From Bryobacterales bacterium (lineage in GTDB: Bacteria; Acidobacteriota; Terriglobia; Bryobacterales; UBA6623), in contig CBDEGU010000011.1 in assembly GCA_965238045.1 (NCBI GenBank), positions 203,555 to 267,554 of the forward strand: a stretch of DNA of 64,000 nucleotides, given 5' to 3'. The notes under the pieces are model-generated. The model was not told the DNA's origin. It did not search any database and saw nothing but the letters and a program-made list of their open reading frames with translations. Position numbers and translations under genes: made by a program. Position 1 is the stretch's first letter. The number at the start of each line of letters is the position of its first letter. Positions 15,901 through 28,078 of the stretch are shown here, piece by piece.

Positions 15901-16923
15901 ATGGGTAACCAGTCCAGCGAACTAGTGATGCCGCCTTCGAAGATCCGGCCCATGACCGAGACCCGGCTCTTGCGCGACGCGGTGGTCGAATTCCAGGCGG
16001 GCAACAAGGGCGGCGCGCGCGCGCTGCTCGACGAGGCGCTGGAGATCAATCCCAACAACGAGCTTGTATGGCTCTGCAAAGCTTCCCTCGCCGAAACTTC
16101 TCGCGAAGTGATCGAGCACCTCGAGCAGGTGCTTCGAATCGACCCGGGGCACGAGAAAGCGCTCTCATGGCTGGCTGGTCTCAGAGACGGGCAGGGCTTT
16201 CCGGAGGCCGGGGACGGCGAATGTCCGCTCTGTGGGATGGAACGGAACGGGGAGTCCGGCCGTTGTCCGCAATGCCGGGCGGTCACCGATCTCAAAGATC
16301 CCGATGCCTTTGCCGGCAACAAGGCTGTGCGGCGGAGCCTTCTCGAACAGGCCAGGGGCCGTTTCGAGGCGGCGCTGAAAGAAGGTCCCAACTATGACGC
16401 CCACTACAACTTGGCTCTGATCTACTTGAACCTCTGTCAGTCCACCCAAGCCATAGCCCATCTGGAGGCGGCCAAGCGGCTGCGGCCTGGCAACCCCCTG
16501 ATCGCCGAGGCCATTGGGGTTCTGCGCGGGCGGCCTCTAATTCTGGTTGTGGACAATTCGGTGACCATTCGCAAGACGCTGGGTTCCATCCTCGAACGGA
16601 ACCGCTATCGCACCATCAGCGCCGGCGACGGACTCGAGGCGCTCTCGCTGCTGCGCGAGGAAACCCCAAATCTCATCTTGCTCGACGTCATGATGCCTCG
16701 CATGAACGGGTATCAAGTATGCAAGAGGATCAGGCGCAATCAGAATACGAAGCGCATTCCAGTTCTCATGATCTCGGCGAACTTCGCCGGCAAGATGCGC
16801 GGCCGGATGGCTGGAGCGACCGGCTATATCCCAAGACCCTTCAAGGCCAAGACGATTCTTGGCGTCATTGAAAAGCATCTCCCGGCGCCGGTCAACGGCA
16901 ACGGGAGCGCAGCGGCCCTCTGA
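15901..16923 (+). CDS. response regulator with N-terminal TPR repeats and a CxxC...CxxC zinc-ribbon insert
   Basis: The C-terminal receiver is ILVVDNSVTIRK...LILLDVMMPRMNGYQVC...PVLMISA. TPR-like helices are N-terminal. The insert is CPLCGMERNGESGRCPQC. GGAG lies upstream of the ATG. Confidence 0.8.
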   Translation: MGNQSSELVMPPSKIRPMTETRLLRDAVVEFQAGNKGGARALLDEALEINPNNELVWLCKASLAETSREVIEHLEQVLRIDPGHEKALSWLAGLRDGQGFPEAGDGECPLCGMERNGESGRCPQCRAVTDLKDPDAFAGNKAVRRSLLEQARGRFEAALKEGPNYDAHYNLALIYLNLCQSTQAIAHLEAAKRLRPGNPLIAEAIGVLRGRPLILVVDNSVTIRKTLGSILERNRYRTISAGDGLEALSLLREETPNLILLDVMMPRMNGYQVCKRIRRNQNTKRIPVLMISANFAGKMRGRMAGATGYIPRPFKAKTILGVIEKHLPAPVNGNGSAAAL

Positions 16924-20222: not shown

Positions 20223-21531
20223 GGGTCTTCCGGCTTTCTAGTGGCTAGGGAGCCAGGTTCAGCCCTCCGCAGTGGAAGTAGATGGCGTTGATGAAGTTCT
20301 GTTGGTTGCGGAATCCCCGGGCGGTGTACTTCACCCATTGCACCTTCGCGTTCAGCGATTCGCTCGTCGCGTTGCTGATGCGGTGGCGCAGATAGGTCAC
20401 GATGTTTCGAAACCGCCGCTTCAGCATCCGCCCCACTTTCACCATCGCTGGCAGCCGGCTGCGTGCCGCCCAGTTGCACCACCAGCGAAAGTGCTTTCTC
20501 GCCGGCCGCTCGTAGCGGTAGTCGAAAAACGCCATCATCGTTTCCTTCAACGCCCAGGCCCGCGCCGTCTTCAAACCACTGTTCCGCAGGGCCGCGAACG
20601 CCCGCCGGTCTTTCGGCTCCATCCGCGCCGGATGCCTCAGCCAGTCATAGCGTGTGCCTACCAGCGTGTCGTCTCCGGCCGCGCGCAGGATCTTGTTCTC
20701 CTGCCGGCGCACTTGGTCCACCGCCCCGCCCAGATGCTGCGCGATATGAAACTTGTCGTAGACGATCTTGTCCTCCGCGCCCGGCAGGTGCTTGCGCACC
20801 GAGGCCACATAGGGATTCCACATGTCCATCGCCACCGCCTCGATCGCGCCGGTCTGCTCCGCGGTCAGGGTGGCCCAAAACCCGTCCAGGCTGCTCTGTT
20901 TGCGGTCCACCGCCACATAGAGCACCCGGCCGCGCTTGAGATCGTTCACCAGCGTCAAGTACTTATGGCCCTTGCGGAAGGCCTTCTCATCGACGCCGAT
21001 AGGCGTGACCTCTTCGGCTTGGCGCCGCTCTAATCCGCGCTTCACCGCGCGCTCCATGATGCCGTGCATTTCGTCCCAACTCAGGTGCAACAGCCCGGCT
21101 ACTGCTTGCTGGCTGGCGGCCCTGAGCCAGGCAATCGCCAGTGCCTCGAACAGCGCGGTGAATCGGCTGGAGGGCTCGGCCCAGGGCAGTTTGACCACCA
21201 GCGCTCCGTGTTTGGGGCATGCGCTGCGCGGCGGAGCGGCATGCACGATCGTACGATATTGACACGTATCGAGGTGCCGCCACTGCCGCTCGGACTGATG
21301 ATCGTGCAGCTTGCACGCCGCGCCGCATTCCGGACACGGCCACTCCGTCTGCTCGGGGTGCGCGAGATAAACGTGGACTTCTCCGGCCTCCAGTTGCAAC
21401 TCCACCGAGTCCACCCGCCAGGGACTCTCGATACCCAGAATGCGCCGATACAGTTCGTGATCTTGCATCCCGGAATTGTCGCATGTCCGCCGGACAGGCC
21501 GCCGTCAACCCACTACAAAGCCGGAAGACCC
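20223..21531 (-). mobile_element. ISL3-family insertion sequence (1309 bp)
   Basis: The 22-bp terminal inverted repeats are GGGTCTTCCGGCTTTCTAGTGG (20223-20244) and its complement at 21510-21531, with 1 mismatch. A single transposase ORF lies inside. The flanking 8-mers differ (CTTTGTTA vs GCTTTTCC). Confidence 0.85.
20245..21468 (-). CDS. ISL3 family transposase
   Basis: 407 aa. The N-terminus ILGIESPWRVDSVELQ and zinc-finger CPECGAAC...CPKHG, followed by VGVDEKAFRKGHKYLTLVNDL, are typical of ISL3 (IS204/IS1001-type) transposases. Confidence 0.9.
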   Translation of the reverse strand: MQDHELYRRILGIESPWRVDSVELQLEAGEVHVYLAHPEQTEWPCPECGAACKLHDHQSERQWRHLDTCQYRTIVHAAPPRSACPKHGALVVKLPWAEPSSRFTALFEALAIAWLRAASQQAVAGLLHLSWDEMHGIMERAVKRGLERRQAEEVTPIGVDEKAFRKGHKYLTLVNDLKRGRVLYVAVDRKQSSLDGFWATLTAEQTGAIEAVAMDMWNPYVASVRKHLPGAEDKIVYDKFHIAQHLGGAVDQVRRQENKILRAAGDDTLVGTRYDWLRHPARMEPKDRRAFAALRNSGLKTARAWALKETMMAFFDYRYERPARKHFRWWCNWAARSRLPAMVKVGRMLKRRFRNIVTYLRHRISNATSESLNAKVQWVKYTARGFRNQQNFINAIYFHCGGLNLAP

Positions 21532-22259: not shown

Positions 22260-22534
22260 TTAGCGCACTACCTAACCGGTGCAGACTAGAGTGGTGCGGG
22301 ACCGGTGAGGCCCAGCGTACCGCCGGAACAGGTTTTCGCCCAGATCCGCCCGGCGCCAGCCCCATTCCGGCTCCACTTTCCCGGCGGGAGACACCAGGGA
22401 GGACACGGGCGATGCCGGCGAAACCTTTGCCAGCCAGATCGTTTGCGGTTGTCTGCGGTATGGTGAGGTCGGCGGCTGGCAAGAGGGCAGCCATCCTGGG
22501 CCGCCCCTGTCGTTCACGTCCATTCACCGCCGCG

Positions 22535-23272
22535 ATGCCCGTCTCCAGCCAACCACCGATCCGGTTCTCTGGCGTTAGCTATCGCGTGGGCGAAACCAAT
22601 CTCGTCTCGGATCTGAGCTTTGTCGTCGGCGAAGCCGAGACCCTGGCGCTGCTCGGGCGAAGCGGCTCTGGCAAGACGACCGCTCTGCGGCTGGTCAATC
22701 GGTTGCTCACGCCCAGCGAGGGAGAGGTCGTCATCGCGGGAAAAGCGGCCTCGGAGTGGGACGCCGTTCGCCTCCGCCGCCGCATCGGATATGTGATGCA
22801 AGACGTTGGGCTGTTCCCGCATTTCACCGTCGAGCGAAACATCGCTTTGGTGCCCTCGCTCGAGGGCTGGCCACCCGATCGCATTGCGCGCAGGGTGAGC
22901 GAGTTGTTAGAGAAACTGGGGTTGCCCGCCGGGCTGGCCCGCCGTTATCCCGATCAGCTCTCCGGCGGCCAGCGGCAGCGAGTCGGTGTCGCCCGCGCAC
23001 TGGCCGCCGATCCGCCGATCCTGCTCATGGACGAACCCTTCGGCGCGCTGGATCCCATCACCCGCGGCGAGCTACAGCGGGAGTTTCTTGGCCTGCAAGA
23101 GACGCTAGGCAAGACCATCGTCTTCGTCACACACGATCTCCGCGAGGCTCTTCTGCTCGGCGACCGTATTGGCCTGATGGACCAGGGACGGCTGATATGG
23201 GCCGGAGCGCCGGAAGAGTTTCGCGCCACCAGCGACCCGAGAATCGTTGCCTACCAGGAGAGTTTGGGATGA
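22535..23272 (+). CDS. ABC transporter ATP-binding protein (osmoprotectant/OpuC-ProV-like, no CBS domains)
   Basis: I prefer ATG 22535. Walker A is GRSGSGKTT, the signature is LSGGQRQRVGVARAL, and Walker B is ILLMDEPFGALD. The stop overlaps the next start (ATGA). Confidence 0.85.
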   Translation: MPVSSQPPIRFSGVSYRVGETNLVSDLSFVVGEAETLALLGRSGSGKTTALRLVNRLLTPSEGEVVIAGKAASEWDAVRLRRRIGYVMQDVGLFPHFTVERNIALVPSLEGWPPDRIARRVSELLEKLGLPAGLARRYPDQLSGGQRQRVGVARALAADPPILLMDEPFGALDPITRGELQREFLGLQETLGKTIVFVTHDLREALLLGDRIGLMDQGRLIWAGAPEEFRATSDPRIVAYQESLG

Positions 23273-23901
23273 ACGCAGCCGCCCTGCTGGCGCAGTATCA
23301 ATCGCAGCTGGTCACCCGGACGCTCGAACATCTGTGGCTCGTGGGCGTCTCGATGCTGATCGCGGCTATGATCGCCATCCCAGCGGGCATCGCGCTGACT
23401 CGGCAGCCGAAAATGGAACGCTGGGTTCTCGGTTTCGCGAATACCGTACAGACGATTCCGAGCCTGGCTTTATTCGGCTTCCTGATCCCGCTTCCGTGGA
23501 TTGGCGGGATCGGCTCGCGCTCGGCCATCGTGGCGCTTGTTCTCTACGCCCTGCTCCCGATGATCCGCAACACCTACACAGGCATCCGCGAGGTCGATCC
23601 GCTGGTGCGAGAGGCCGCCGTGGCGATGGGCATGACCGATGGGCAGATTCTGCGCATGGTGGAACTGCCGCTGGCGGCGAGAACGATCATGGCCGGCCTG
23701 CGCGTGGCCACCGTTACGGGAGTCGGCGTGGCCACCGTGGCGACTCTGATTGGCGCCGGCGGGCTGGGCAACTTCATTTACCGGGGCCTGCAAACCGTGA
23801 ACTCGGGACTCATCCTGCTCGGCGCGGTACCGGCGGCGCTCATGGCGCTGGCGGCCGACTATGGTCTGGGCATGGTCGAGAGAAGGCTCAGCCGTGGCTA
23901 G
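23269..23901 (+). CDS. ABC transporter permease (OpuCB/ProW-like)
   Basis: ATG 23269 overlaps the upstream stop. The protein is polytopic, with the EAA-like loop REAAVAMGMTDGQILRMVELPLA. Confidence 0.8.
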   Translation: MNAAALLAQYQSQLVTRTLEHLWLVGVSMLIAAMIAIPAGIALTRQPKMERWVLGFANTVQTIPSLALFGFLIPLPWIGGIGSRSAIVALVLYALLPMIRNTYTGIREVDPLVREAAVAMGMTDGQILRMVELPLAARTIMAGLRVATVTGVGVATVATLIGAGGLGNFIYRGLQTVNSGLILLGAVPAALMALAADYGLGMVERRLSRG

Positions 23902-24013
23902 CTGTCTCAGCATGTTTTCACACCTTCCCGGCAGCAGGGGTGCTTGAACCCCGCCCTATTTACTAGTAGAATCACCAAAGCGTCTTTGCTTTCTCGGATC
24001 GTTCTTCTTTCCT

Positions 24014-25912
24014 GTGAGTATGCCGTCCTCAAACCCTAGCGACCCGAATGCATCGCGGCCGGATCGTGGCGGCCTGCTGAATTCCTGGAAGGAAATCGCC
24101 ACCTACCTAAATCGGAGCATCGTTACGGTTCGGCGCTGGGAGAAGAAAGAGGCCCTTCCGGTTCACCGCGACAAGAAAGCGAAATCCGTCACGATCCGCG
24201 CTTACCAGTCTGAGCTGGACCAGTGGTCTCGCGCACGTGAGAAAGAGGAGCAGGCTGAAGCCGGCGGCGCCCCGAGAGTCCCCCTCGAAGCCGCGCCCGC
24301 TACTGAGCTAGACGCGGCGCTCGAAGCCGAATCCGGGCTGGAAACGGCTTTGGCCGAGCCTCCAGATCCGGAGCCAGCCGCCGAGGCCGAACCCGACGCG
24401 CCAGCCGAAATGCCGTCCAGCGGGCGGCAGCCGTCCGTCGGCGCCGACGGCCCCTCGCTGAGCGATGCCCCAGCGGGGGAACGGCTGGCGTCCTGGAAGA
24501 AGATCGTCGCGTATCTTGACAAAGGGGTCGGCAAAGTCAAAGGGCTGGCCAAGCAAAAGGGCCTGCCCGTTCACAGGAACGCGAAAACCAAACGTGCCGC
24601 CATATGGGCGTACACATCGGAACTCGACGCCTGGTTGAGACAGACCGAAAGCGCTCCGCCAACCGAGGCCATCGCCGAACCCGAAATACAAGATCAGCCA
24701 TTGCCTTTGGCGGATCGCGCATCCCAACCCATTGCCGAGACGGAAACTCTCCCGGCGGCCGAAGCCTCCGCCGAACCCGAACGACAACCCGCATCGGAGC
24801 CAGAGCCGCAACCACCCGCGGAGTCCGAGATCCTGAGCGAGGTGGAAGTCGCCCCGGAAATCGTGCCTGAATTTTTCTCCGAGGCCGAAGGCCCCGCGGC
24901 AGCCGCATCACCTGATCCGCCCGGGCCTGCGAGCGTCAGCGAAGTGGAGGCACCCGCCGAACAGCGGCCCGCCGAGCCGGAGATCCCCGAGCCGGAGCCC
25001 GCCACCGAGCCCGCACACGAAATGGAACCGGCGGAGGCCGAAGAGGCAGCGGTCCAGCCGCCTGCCGAAACCGAAATTTCCGTCTCGGGCGAAGTCCCCG
25101 AGCAACCGCCCGCCGAGCCTGTCGTCGTCCCCGAGGCAGCGGCTGCTCCTGAACCGTTCGTCCCCGCGCCAGGACCTCCACCGTCTGAGGATCTGCTGAA
25201 TTCGTGGAGGGAAATCGCCGCCTATTTTGACTGTTCCGTGGGCACGGTCCGGCGCTGGGAGAAGAGCAAGGGTTTGCCGGTTCATCGTGACCGGCGGCAG
25301 AATCTGGTCTGGATCTACGCCTACCGCTGGGAACTCGAACACTGGGGCCAGGCCGGGGCGGGCGTCGCATCGGGCGAGGTCCCAGGCCCCTTGGCCCCGC
25401 CATCGGCGCCAGGACGATTTGAGACGGCTCCAGAGCAAGCCACGGCGGCTCCGCCTCTCGGGCTGCCAACCGCCGAAGTCGAATTGCCGCCAGTGGACGA
25501 CACCACGTACGCCACGGTCTCGGTCGCCAAATCCTCCGAGGCGGACTCCGCGGGGGAGATGCCGCCCCTGGTGCTAGCGCAAGCCGGGCTGACTGTATTT
25601 GGCGGCATGCTTCTGGTGATCTATCTGATCGGTACGGTCGTGAACGGGAAAGTTCTCGCTCAAGTGCTTTCCGCGGGCGTGCTGATGATCTTTCCGCTTG
25701 CGATCGCGCCCATTGTCATCGGCGCTCTGATCATCCGGCGAAGCGAAAAATCCGGCCACCGTCCCCCGGGTTTCGTCTGGGCCCAAGCGGGCATGTACGT
25801 GGGACTGACGCTCGCCGTCATCACCACCCTGATTGTCGCGTTTGCCGCCGCCGTGGAAATGATGCAACTGATTGCCGCGCTGCCCATCCCGCAAATGCCG
25901 CGCTTCCTCTAG
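24014..25912 (+). CDS. membrane-anchored protein with three excisionase/MerR-type HTH modules separated by acidic Pro/Glu/Ala-rich linkers
   Basis: There are three ~55-aa repeats: LLNSWKEIATYLNRSIVTVRRWEKKEALPVHR..., LASWKKIVAYLDKGVGKVKGLAKQKGLPVHR..., and LLNSWREIAAYFDCSVGTVRRWEKSKGLPVHR.... The C-terminal ~110 aa form 3-4 hydrophobic helices. The start is GTG 24014 or ATG 24020. Confidence 0.8.
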   Translation: MSMPSSNPSDPNASRPDRGGLLNSWKEIATYLNRSIVTVRRWEKKEALPVHRDKKAKSVTIRAYQSELDQWSRAREKEEQAEAGGAPRVPLEAAPATELDAALEAESGLETALAEPPDPEPAAEAEPDAPAEMPSSGRQPSVGADGPSLSDAPAGERLASWKKIVAYLDKGVGKVKGLAKQKGLPVHRNAKTKRAAIWAYTSELDAWLRQTESAPPTEAIAEPEIQDQPLPLADRASQPIAETETLPAAEASAEPERQPASEPEPQPPAESEILSEVEVAPEIVPEFFSEAEGPAAAASPDPPGPASVSEVEAPAEQRPAEPEIPEPEPATEPAHEMEPAEAEEAAVQPPAETEISVSGEVPEQPPAEPVVVPEAAAAPEPFVPAPGPPPSEDLLNSWREIAAYFDCSVGTVRRWEKSKGLPVHRDRRQNLVWIYAYRWELEHWGQAGAGVASGEVPGPLAPPSAPGRFETAPEQATAAPPLGLPTAEVELPPVDDTTYATVSVAKSSEADSAGEMPPLVLAQAGLTVFGGMLLVIYLIGTVVNGKVLAQVLSAGVLMIFPLAIAPIVIGALIIRRSEKSGHRPPGFVWAQAGMYVGLTLAVITTLIVAFAAAVEMMQLIAALPIPQMPRFL

Positions 25913-25987
25913 CCGGTGCCTCAGAGCAGGGATACGGATTCCCGCGTGTATTGAAACCGGAGCCGGGTCAACGTATACTTTGGAACC

Positions 25988-28078
25988 ATGGCGTCTTTCG
26001 CGTGCTGGTTTGTCGCGGTGTTGTGCGTATGGGTCGCTCCGCTAGCGGCCCAAGTGAGGCCCGTTTCAGCGGATCAGGAAAGAATGTGGTTGCGGCATCT
26101 CATTCCGCTGCCGCATGAAATATCGATTGGCGAAAAGATGGTGCTCTCGCCGGGCTCGGTTCGCATCACGGTTGAGGACGGCTCGACGGAGATCGAACAG
26201 AACGCGGCGGACGAACTGCGGCGGCTGTTGGCCTCCCCGGCTGGGGCTGGGGCATCTCTGGGGAAGGCGCGTCCTGGAAGCAGCGCCGCGGACACGGCGT
26301 TCGAGGTTCTGATCGGAGTCGCCGGCCGCGGGATGATTCGCGGGATCGTGCCGGATTCCGACATGCGAAGGCTCAGGGCGCTTCCGAACCGGGAACAAGC
26401 CTACCTCATTCGTCCCGTTGGCAAGGCAAAGCTCGTGGTTACGGCCCTGCATCCGAAAGGCGTGTATCACGGCGTCCGAACGCTGCATCAGCTTTTGGAA
26501 GCGCGACTGTCGGCCGGCCGAGTCGAGGTTCCCCTGGCGAGGGTGACCGATTGGCCGGATCTCGAAGAGAGAGGTCTGTGGAACTTTCCCAATCCAGAGG
26601 AATGGGTGCCCTGGATGGCGGCTCTCAAGCTGAACTACGGCAAGATGGCCAGAACGAAACTGCTGCCGATCGAGAGAGGCAAGAAGAATGGTGTCGTGAT
26701 CGAGACCGAACTCTATCAGGCGGCCCGGCGGCAGGCGTTTCACTATCAGCCCTACCTGATCCACTTCAATTTGCTGCACGCCTCCGGTCTCTTTCGCGCC
26801 TATCCAGAATTGGCGGGCGAGGGGGACGCGGCGCTAGCGGGACGTTACTTTGCTCATAAGAGCGGGAATCAGCACCGTGCGCCGAAAGCGGATCACCCGT
26901 TGTTTCAAAAGCTGCTCGCCGAGTGGCTCGGTGATTTCGCCGCGCAGGGTGTGGAGGAAGTCAGTTGCTGGCTCAGCGAGCGGCCCGCCGAGGATGAAGG
27001 CCGGCCCGCCAATGCGCCGGGCCAGGAGGTTAGCGAGACCCGCGCGCTGCTTGCCGCGTTGCGGGAAGTTCGGAAAACCTACCCGAGTTTCGGCATTCGG
27101 ATCTTTCTTTCCACCGTGCCGCCGGGACGCTACTACCGCGTCATGGCGGAGACGCCGAGTGACATCAAGATCGAGCGGGCTTGCGCGACCAAGCTGGAGC
27201 GCATCCCGCACTTGCCGCGCGACCTGTTTCGCAATCCGATGCTCGATCACTACAGCGCCAGCGGACGGTGGATCGCCAGCTACGATGTACCGATCACCGC
27301 CAACGCGCGCGTCGACACGCCTGAGTTCATGGTGCCGGAGAGTTCGGCTCACCGCGTGCGGGATTATCTTGGGCAGCTTATCGAGCGTAAGGTCCGGGGC
27401 GCCTACGGCATGATGGCGTGGGCTGACCATGGCAAGCAGACCTGCGGCTACAACATTCACGCGCTGGCTGAGTTCGCCTGGAATCACAAGGGGCGAAGCG
27501 AGAAGGAGTTTAGCATCGCCTGGGCGACGCGGGAGGGCTATAAGGATCCGGAGCGTGTCGGGGAGTGGGCGGAGCTGATGGGTCCGGTGGAGTTCGACGT
27601 GTATGATTCGGATTTTCCGATTGTCTACTCGTGGGGCAAGGCCGCGAAGATGATCGAGCAGCGCGAGCGGCCGTATCTCGGGGAAGGGATTTTCCGCTAC
27701 TACAGCGACCGCGAGGATTTTGACCGCAAGATTGCCGCTTGTGACCGGGCGCTGGAGATTGCACGAGGTTTTGAAAACCCCTACCTTGCCGATGAAACGC
27801 GCGTCGTGCGCTCCTATGTGCGGCTCGCGAAATCGCTGTATGAAGTCGCGGAGCTTGTCGCCATGAATGAGTTTCGTGATCTTGCGAGCCAGGCTCGCTT
27901 GCGGGGCGCCCTCGATCAGCTCGCCGCCGCCGGAGAGGAGAACGCCAGCGCAATTCGCCAGTGGCGGCGGCGGCTGGGGCCGCAACCCTGGCATCGGCGC
28001 GTTCATGACGCCATCGAGGCGGCCGAAGCGACGGTGAACGACGTCAAGGAATTCGTTTCGGGGCGCTACTTTTACTGA
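25988..28078 (+). CDS. secreted glycoside-hydrolase-like protein (GH20/GH84-type N-terminal domain)
   Basis: The signal peptide is MASFACWFVAVLCVWVAPLAAQ. The block EQAYLIRP...KGVYHGVRTLHQLL...VTDWPDLEERG resembles the GH20b-type N-domain followed by a TIM-barrel-length region. The catalytic motif is not verified. Confidence 0.5.
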   Translation: MASFACWFVAVLCVWVAPLAAQVRPVSADQERMWLRHLIPLPHEISIGEKMVLSPGSVRITVEDGSTEIEQNAADELRRLLASPAGAGASLGKARPGSSAADTAFEVLIGVAGRGMIRGIVPDSDMRRLRALPNREQAYLIRPVGKAKLVVTALHPKGVYHGVRTLHQLLEARLSAGRVEVPLARVTDWPDLEERGLWNFPNPEEWVPWMAALKLNYGKMARTKLLPIERGKKNGVVIETELYQAARRQAFHYQPYLIHFNLLHASGLFRAYPELAGEGDAALAGRYFAHKSGNQHRAPKADHPLFQKLLAEWLGDFAAQGVEEVSCWLSERPAEDEGRPANAPGQEVSETRALLAALREVRKTYPSFGIRIFLSTVPPGRYYRVMAETPSDIKIERACATKLERIPHLPRDLFRNPMLDHYSASGRWIASYDVPITANARVDTPEFMVPESSAHRVRDYLGQLIERKVRGAYGMMAWADHGKQTCGYNIHALAEFAWNHKGRSEKEFSIAWATREGYKDPERVGEWAELMGPVEFDVYDSDFPIVYSWGKAAKMIEQRERPYLGEGIFRYYSDREDFDRKIAACDRALEIARGFENPYLADETRVVRSYVRLAKSLYEVAELVAMNEFRDLASQARLRGALDQLAAAGEENASAIRQWRRRLGPQPWHRRVHDAIEAAEATVNDVKEFVSGRYFY

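Follow-up and report, generated by a model that had tools for sequence, protein, structure and literature searches.

The locus and the triple-HTH gene

The 64,000-nucleotide stretch of Bryobacterales DNA analysed here (contig CBDEGU010000011.1 of assembly GCA_965238045.1, positions 203,555–267,554, hereafter referred to as the window) carries an open reading frame (ORF) for a protein with three helix-turn-helix (HTH) modules which are separated by long acidic linkers and followed by a C-terminal transmembrane domain (Table 1), and which we refer to as the triple-HTH protein. The ORF was found exactly where the initial annotation of the window had placed it, and lies between ABC ATPase and permease genes upstream and GH20b-like and PepA genes downstream. 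As the homologues open with MPSS, the ATG at 24020 is a likelier start than the GTG at 24014, and we consider it probably the true start of what would then be a 630 amino acid (aa) protein. Two promoter-like sites were observed compared with 0.2 expected in shuffled sequences, and the region of the site upstream of the gene is ~90% conserved in the related loci L002 and L003. The sigma-70-like site suggests that the triple-HTH gene may be transcribed on its own. A search of the whole window against Rfam gave no match.

Table 1. Features of the triple-HTH gene and its protein product in the window.
Feature	Position	Strand	Remarks
Sigma-70-like promoter, TTGAAC-17-TAGAAT	23944..23972	+	Consensus match only; ~40 nt 5' of the start
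Coding sequence, triple-HTH membrane protein	24014..25912	+	632 aa counted from the GTG
Module 1, winged HTH of the HTH_17/MerR/excisionase type	24074..24238	+	~aa 21–75, 86.1 bits
Linker 1, acidic Pro/Glu/Ala-rich	24239..24484	+	aa 76–157, net charge -16
Module 2, divergent copy	24485..24649	+	~aa 158–212, 61.3 bits
Linker 2, acidic Pro/Glu/Ala-rich	24650..25192	+	aa 213–393, net charge -41
Module 3, winged HTH	25193..25357	+	~aa 394–448, 74.4 bits
Linker 3, from module 3 to the membrane anchor	25358..25564	+	aa 449–517, net charge -7
C-terminal three-helix transmembrane domain	25565..25909	+	aa 518–632; from hydropathy and AlphaFold2 helices

The three modules and their predicted fold

Comparison with a profile built from 25 modules, all taken from other proteins, placed the modules at residues 21–76, 156–211 and 393–447 (E-values of 6e-29, 3e-21 and 3e-25, respectively), and with scores of 61–86 bits they are genuine and well above chance expectation. 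This bears out the three modules of the initial annotation, which had put the start of the third at residue 409, some 15 residues too late, as this module begins at ~393–397. Pairwise, the three are 44–51% identical across ~60 aa, and 18 columns of their alignment are invariant. They have net charges of +7, +8 and +3 (modules 1, 2 and 3, respectively), and retain the family-invariant W, LPVHR and W in every module (3/3) of every intact allele. Module 2 is degenerate in helix 2, where it reads GKVKGLA compared to RTVQRWE in the family, and is dispensable in the close relative P0003.

The assignment of these modules to the HTH_17/MerR/excisionase superfamily is well supported by profile matches and by the predicted fold, and the excisionase-type label they had first been given is right at that level. 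The whole protein scores 29.2 bits against HTH_17 (PF12728, two stretches summed; gathering score 27) and 30.3 bits against HTH_23 (gathering score 24.6), module 3 being the best stretch for the HTH_17, HTH_23 and MerR models of Pfam, and 26.2 bits against the NCBIfam excise model TIGR01764 (cut-off 28.8). HTH_17 also matches 24 of 28 family modules at E ≤ 0.01 (best E 8.5e-8). The BldC model NF033787 matches only four of the same 28 (E ≥ 4.7e-4), which leaves them outside the BldC family; the modules of the triple-HTH protein resemble BldC in fold alone, and are part of a 632-aa membrane protein, whereas BldC-family proteins are free-standing winged HTH proteins of ~68 aa. The MAD1 HTH model NF047737 gave 35.5 bits, too low for an equivalog assignment with its 80-bit cut-off. 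The PADLOC mad1 match (E 5e-11) is confined to the HTH, and the neighbouring genes encode the ABC transporter, GH20b-like protein and PepA and are not defence genes.

An AlphaFold2 (AF2) model of the module based on an alignment of 28 sequences had a predicted local distance difference test score (pLDDT) of 87.9, with helices at residues 9–16, 20–29 and 49–58 and strands at 35–39 and 42–48, and thus has the helix, turn, recognition helix, beta-hairpin wing and C-terminal helix of a winged-HTH fold. Foldseek matched this model to RdfS (8dgl, TM-score 0.65), the RacA–DNA complex (5i44, 0.67) and BldC (6ama, 0.64), as well as to NmlR (5d90) and the Pukovnik Xis, with overall probabilities of 0.92–1.00 and TM-scores of 0.55–0.67. 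The meaningful matches in a sequence search of the PDB were RacA, Nu1 and BldC (E 0.1–0.5); the top matches, designer Kelch 'SAKe' proteins, were rejected as spurious because they arise by summing over a repeated motif of 18 residues.

The acidic linkers and the membrane domain

The linkers are made up of 16–21% P, 18–20% E and 19–23% A and are probably disordered. In linker 1, where in-frame insertions and deletions (indels) are seen between orthologues, the pLDDT of the full-length AF2 model is below 50. No DNA tandem repeats were found as a source of the linkers, and the linker strings quoted in the initial annotation are all present in the translation, one with a single-letter difference.

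Three C-terminal helices (residues ~518–542, 545–580 and 585–621, from hydropathy and the low-confidence full-length AF2 model) serve as the inner-membrane anchor of the protein, and of the three to four that had been proposed, three stand and the fourth does not. The two loops between the helices are 3 and 12 residues long and the tail after the last is of ~11–20 residues, leaving no periplasmic domain. The sole strongly basic loop, RRSEKSGHR, lies between the second and third helices, which favours an N-in topology, and no signal peptide was found. Taken with the topology of the single-module relatives, the absence of a signal peptide and the positive-inside rule put the N-terminal 515 residues in the cytoplasm. 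The Pro/Glu-rich spacers might also be read as periplasmic and TonB-like, but we rejected this given the missing signal peptide, the conflict with the positive-inside rule and the opposite topology of the single-module relatives. The membrane domain has no homologues outside the clade, with a search using this domain alone returning only the remnant P0092, and no Pfam, NCBIfam or PADLOC models matched it. It should be noted that the full-length AF2 model is unfit for fold searches or for inferring contacts between domains.

Alleles and selection

Only five alleles of the gene were found in all of the public data searched. Two are intact in addition to that of the window: P0001 (620 aa, Logan SRR28296001), which is ~88% identical in nucleotide sequence, has its three modules arranged as in the window protein, and P0003 (539 aa, ENA ERZ23495181) lacks module 2 and contains a linker that has been rearranged. 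The ORF is open across 1.6–1.9 kb in the three assemblies at ~88–90% nucleotide identity with no internal stops, and the indels among the three intact alleles are all multiples of three. The ratio of non-synonymous to synonymous substitutions (dN/dS) is below 1 in every segment, at 0.12–0.16 for the transmembrane domain, 0.39–0.47 for the modules and 0.38–0.56 for the linkers. Constraint is strongest in the transmembrane domain, which has 96–97% aa identity at a dS of ~0.15.

The remaining two alleles are disrupted in different ways. In L001, a 2.88-Mb contig from a strain 99.7% identical to the window, there is a 90-bp in-frame deletion in linker 2 (window 25043–25132; L001 11024) between 8-bp direct repeats GAGGCAGC, and a slippage-like 8-bp insertion CGTCGCAT at 25359 (L001 11250) which causes a frameshift after module 3 and splits the gene into a 491-aa ORF for a soluble protein with all three HTH modules and a 117-aa transmembrane ORF. 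In L164 (JGI 3300045738, 1–1768), the similarity to the window begins only at 25502, the transmembrane domain is frameshifted, and the HTH part has been replaced by an opposite-strand integrase-like gene with an Arm/DUF4102-like N-terminus, an arrangement which suggests a remnant allele adjoining a mobile element.

We conclude that the triple-HTH protein is a real and lineage-specific protein of uncultured soil Bryobacterales (Acidobacteriota) which is found in one narrow clade.

A large family of single-module proteins

The ~59-aa module itself is unannotated, with the consensus RLDSWKEIAAYLxRxVRTVQRWEKEEGLPVHR...SVYAYxSELDAW in loci L084–L163, and we found no paper on it in the literature on Acidobacteria. 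When 1.84 billion representative proteins were searched with a profile, 12,416 of them contained the module (9,552 at E ≤ 1e-10). Amongst the best 150 of these 12,416 matches, three module stretches were seen in the window's clade only. As the module scores add up, multi-copy proteins head the list of matches, and three-copy proteins with divergent modules and a total below ~110 bits would fall outside the best 150. No further clade members were found in GTDB genomes or JGI metagenomes.

According to the initial annotation, acidobacterial regulators usually have a single N-terminal copy of the module, and this agrees with the 88 non-orthologous matches of our first search, all of which (88/88) have a single N-terminal module. 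A transmembrane segment was found in most of these 88 relatives, usually 10–30 aa past the module and followed by TPR, PD40 or TAXI domains. All 89 module ORFs at 80 JGI metagenome loci are likewise single-copy. At least 33 other representatives amongst the matches listed have two modules, and these include REC-PAS-2xHTH (P0118 and P0122), REC-2xHTH (P0119) and 2xHTH-REC (P0113) proteins as well as one 2xHTH-TPR and one 2xHTH-transmembrane-PD40 protein. In P0098 and P0103, two adjoining modules without a linker are followed by a conserved ~65-aa C-terminal domain (...LSPEQITTALRALADYYRACGGVGFKIDFE...) of unassigned type. Long acidic linkers and a three-helix anchor were not seen elsewhere in the module family amongst the matches examined.

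In 81 distinct modules, conservation is 84–100% at most positions of helix 2 (R-T-V-Q-R-W-E) and of the LPV(H/R)R wing base. These come from soil metagenomes, are independent of one another, are attached to varied sensor domains and were picked solely by their helix 1 pattern.

Genomic neighbourhood

The initial annotation had advised looking for a conserved neighbourhood with the upstream ABC genes, and this was not seen, as none of 80 related Acidobacteriota loci shares it. In L002 the ABC ATPase and permease genes have been cut to a 157-aa remnant by deletions of ~250 and ~820 bp (L002 398–925 compared to window 22412–23901) and the HTH gene has been kept, which leaves a link between them unsupported. 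We therefore rejected a functional link to the upstream ABC transporter on the basis of the L002 deletions, the gene's own promoter-like site, and a neighbourhood which is not shared in related loci. The window PepA is ≤70% identical to those of Bryobacterales and Terriglobia metagenome-assembled genomes, which makes the host an uncultured member of the Bryobacterales. By tblastn no neighbouring genes are shared at the seven closest PepA loci, and a module-encoding ORF lies near PepA in only one of the 80 loci (L031), where the match is weak.

An intact ISL3-family transposase gene (407 aa, window 20245–21468, minus strand) lies ~2.5 kb upstream of the triple-HTH gene, and the region of L001 which matches the upstream flank contains several rve-type integrase/transposase genes. 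The triple-HTH gene therefore adjoins a variable region rich in insertion sequences (IS).

Downstream, positions 25988–28078 (plus strand) encode a 696-aa protein with a signal-peptide-like N-terminus, preceded by a promoter-like site of its own at 25951–25979, which matches only the non-catalytic Glyco_hydro_20b domain; no match to a GH20 catalytic domain was found in it. Further upstream in the window (15901–16923, plus strand) is a gene for a 340-aa protein with an N-terminal TPR and a C-terminal response-regulator receiver domain, which is an unusual order.

Comparison with known systems

The triple-HTH protein is like the transmembrane transcription regulators ToxR, CadC and BcrR in having a cytoplasmic N-terminal DNA-binding-type domain fused to transmembrane helices, and it resembles BcrR in particular, which has transmembrane helices only and no large external sensor domain. 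It differs from ToxR and CadC, which have an OmpR-type Trans_reg_C domain, a single transmembrane helix and a periplasmic sensor, and from BcrR, which has an XRE-type HTH. No ToxR-, CadC- or BcrR-type profile matched the triple-HTH protein, and for Trans_reg_C there was no match at E ≤ 10, which sets it apart from the ToxR/CadC type. Transmembrane transcription regulators have been catalogued as a class which is enriched in Acidobacteriae; 151 of those listed use HTH_17, and at least three transmembrane helices are present in 27% of the class (PMC10269533). With its HTH_17 and HTH_23 matches and three helices, the triple-HTH protein falls within the definition of the class (a DNA-binding domain plus at least one transmembrane helix). 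We found no described transmembrane regulator with three DNA-binding modules on acidic tethers of 82 and 181 residues.

The uncharacterised acidobacterial HTH–transmembrane–TPR/PD40/TAXI proteins have the same module (47–61% identical to module 1), which is also cytoplasmic and N-terminal in them, and they too are membrane-anchored. These relatives have one module, a linker of 10–30 aa, one transmembrane helix and a large periplasmic domain, whereas the triple-HTH protein combines three modules and very long acidic linkers with a bundle of three transmembrane helices and lacks a periplasmic domain, and so stands outside this single-module family in copy number, linker length, helix number and periplasmic domain. 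The two-module relatives have the same module duplicated in one chain, and one of them (P0124) is membrane-anchored; in contrast, their linkers are of 0–103 aa (median ~20) and nearly neutral, and most lack a transmembrane segment. The novelty claimed for the triple-HTH protein in the initial annotation holds in that a three-copy membrane architecture with acidic spacers is extremely rare, and does not hold in that transmembrane transcription regulators had already been catalogued and two-copy forms exist.

Amongst soluble proteins, BldC, RdfS, Xis and Apl are without dimerisation domains and form head-to-tail multimers on direct repeats (PMC5859096, PMC11963761, PMC7498355). Their likeness to the modules lies in the best fold matches (TM-score 0.55–0.65) and weak profile matches, and they differ in being free soluble proteins of ~55–70 aa which form non-covalent oligomers, whereas the copies in the window protein are covalently joined, far apart and membrane-bound. 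RacA, the Bacillus subtilis chromosome-anchoring protein, has a MerR-like winged HTH with the highest TM-score (0.67, 5i44) and a weak sequence match, and it tethers DNA to the cell envelope. It differs in being a soluble coiled-coil dimer with one HTH per chain and no transmembrane helices which reaches the membrane via DivIVA.

A possible membrane-anchored multivalent DNA binder

With modest confidence, we favour the reading that the triple-HTH protein is a membrane-anchored multivalent DNA binder, and would either be a variant of the transmembrane transcription regulators or tether DNA to the membrane. From the homology of the modules, their positive charge and their output position in response regulators we infer that they may bind double-stranded DNA, with modules 1 and 3 the likely binding heads. 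As BldC, RdfS, Xis and RacA are multimeric on repeated sites without their own dimerisation domains, several modules in one chain would be expected to give multivalent binding, and, given that BldC, RdfS and Apl are multimeric on direct repeats, avidity could plausibly be raised by joining several copies of the module covalently. The acidic linkers could act as extended spacers, repelled by both membrane and DNA, which would allow the modules to reach tens of nanometres into the nucleoid, and they could also damp non-specific binding and might be autoinhibitory. The conserved transmembrane domain may be the sensing part of the protein or the site at which a partner is bound. The initial annotation had suggested that the protein might be a nucleoid or plasmid tether or a regulator released by proteolysis, and no protease site or partner of the triple-HTH protein was found. 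Such a protein might have originated from an acidobacterial protein of the type with an HTH, one transmembrane helix and a periplasmic domain, by internal duplication and linker expansion, and the gene would seem to be weakly constrained and frequently lost.

A number of observations weigh against this reading. The modules change nearly as fast as the linkers, and the confidence intervals of module dN/dS reach 0.8–1.0; two of the five known alleles are disrupted (one frameshifted and one truncated), and another is without module 2. Module 2 itself lacks the family-invariant T20, R23, W24 and E25 of helix 2. When single modules are scanned alone they score below the Pfam gathering score (19.3 compared to 27 for module 1 and HTH_17), and the Foldseek E-values are all ≥ 0.04 (0.04–0.3), which we attribute to the small size of the domain. 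The call of disorder in the linkers rests mainly on their composition, as the full-length AF2 model is weak (pLDDT 41, from a three-sequence alignment), and the spacer and damping roles suggested above are pure inference. Finally, the invariance of helix 2 is unusual for paralogous transcription factors with different regulons, and its near-invariance across differing sensor domains points to one common target which need not be DNA; candidates are a DNA box common to the family, non-specific DNA and a conserved protein.

The last of these leads to an alternative that we regard as unlikely, in which the modules would be protein-interaction HTH domains like that of RodZ, a membrane-anchored protein whose cytoplasmic HTH binds MreB, and the triple-HTH protein would be a multivalent membrane scaffold which recruits as many as three molecules of a conserved cytoplasmic partner, this partner being common to the whole acidobacterial family. 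The near-invariance of helix 2 and the LPV(H/R)R wing base in 81 modules with unrelated periplasmic domains is consistent with this, as is their high conservation over ~9,500 representatives (E ≤ 1e-10), which favours a common target over many operators, and the module lies only 10–30 aa from the membrane in the single-module relatives. RodZ-type 'HTH_25,DUF4115' proteins have moreover been counted as transmembrane regulators (PMC10269533). However, the closest folds are all DNA-bound or DNA-binding winged HTH domains, the modules are strongly basic (+7, +8 and +3), the exposed conserved residues of helix 2 (R, T, Q and R) are typical DNA contacts, and the module holds the output position in response regulators, all of which weigh against this alternative.

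It is similarly improbable, in our judgement, that the gene is a young, nearly neutral by-product which arose in a variable, IS-rich region through duplication and the expansion of low-complexity sequence, with little or no function and heading for loss. This would fit the small number of alleles (five), the L001 frameshift which splits off the transmembrane domain together with the 90-bp linker deletion, the frameshifted transmembrane remnant beside an integrase-like gene, and the allele without module 2 and with a rearranged linker, as well as the module and linker dN/dS of 0.4–0.6, the lack of synteny in 80 related genomes and the ISL3 and rve transposase genes a few kb upstream. Set against these are the purifying selection on the transmembrane domain (dN/dS 0.12–0.16 and 96–97% aa identity), an ORF that is open in three assemblies with all indels in frame, the W, LPVHR and W kept in all modules of the intact alleles, and the promoter-like site conserved upstream.

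The artefactual fusion of three small HTH genes and a membrane-protein gene, against which the initial annotation had cautioned, is effectively refuted and scarcely credible: the L001 gene is called as two ORFs (491 and 117 aa), but this split is due to a specific 8-bp insertion and not to a gene boundary, and there is one continuous frame in the window and in two independent assemblies from other samples, giving three intact alleles with in-frame indels, no internal stops and dN/dS <1 throughout.

A more elaborate form of the membrane-anchored DNA-binder reading would have the protein act as a 'fishing-line' tether, in which three heads on polyanionic leashes catch repeated sites in chromosomal, incoming or mobile DNA and hold the DNA at the membrane, with the leashes serving as intramolecular DNA mimics that inhibit the heads until a signal arrives through the three-helix transmembrane domain. 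We think this very unlikely; the combination is one that is undescribed among bacterial membrane-bound DNA binders.

Significance

If functional, the triple-HTH protein would be the first example of a regulator built into the membrane in which several DNA-binding heads are joined covalently by long acidic tethers, and would bear on how membrane-bound regulators find their chromosomal targets. The three-module protein is nonetheless genuinely rare, narrowly distributed and weakly constrained, and the rarity and weak constraint of its gene mean that its own biological weight is probably small. The wider result is perhaps more useful, namely a very large and unannotated family of Acidobacteriota modules with ~12,000 representatives, whose near-invariant recognition helix hints at a shared target and at a layer of signalling, as yet uncharacterised, in one of the major phyla of soil.

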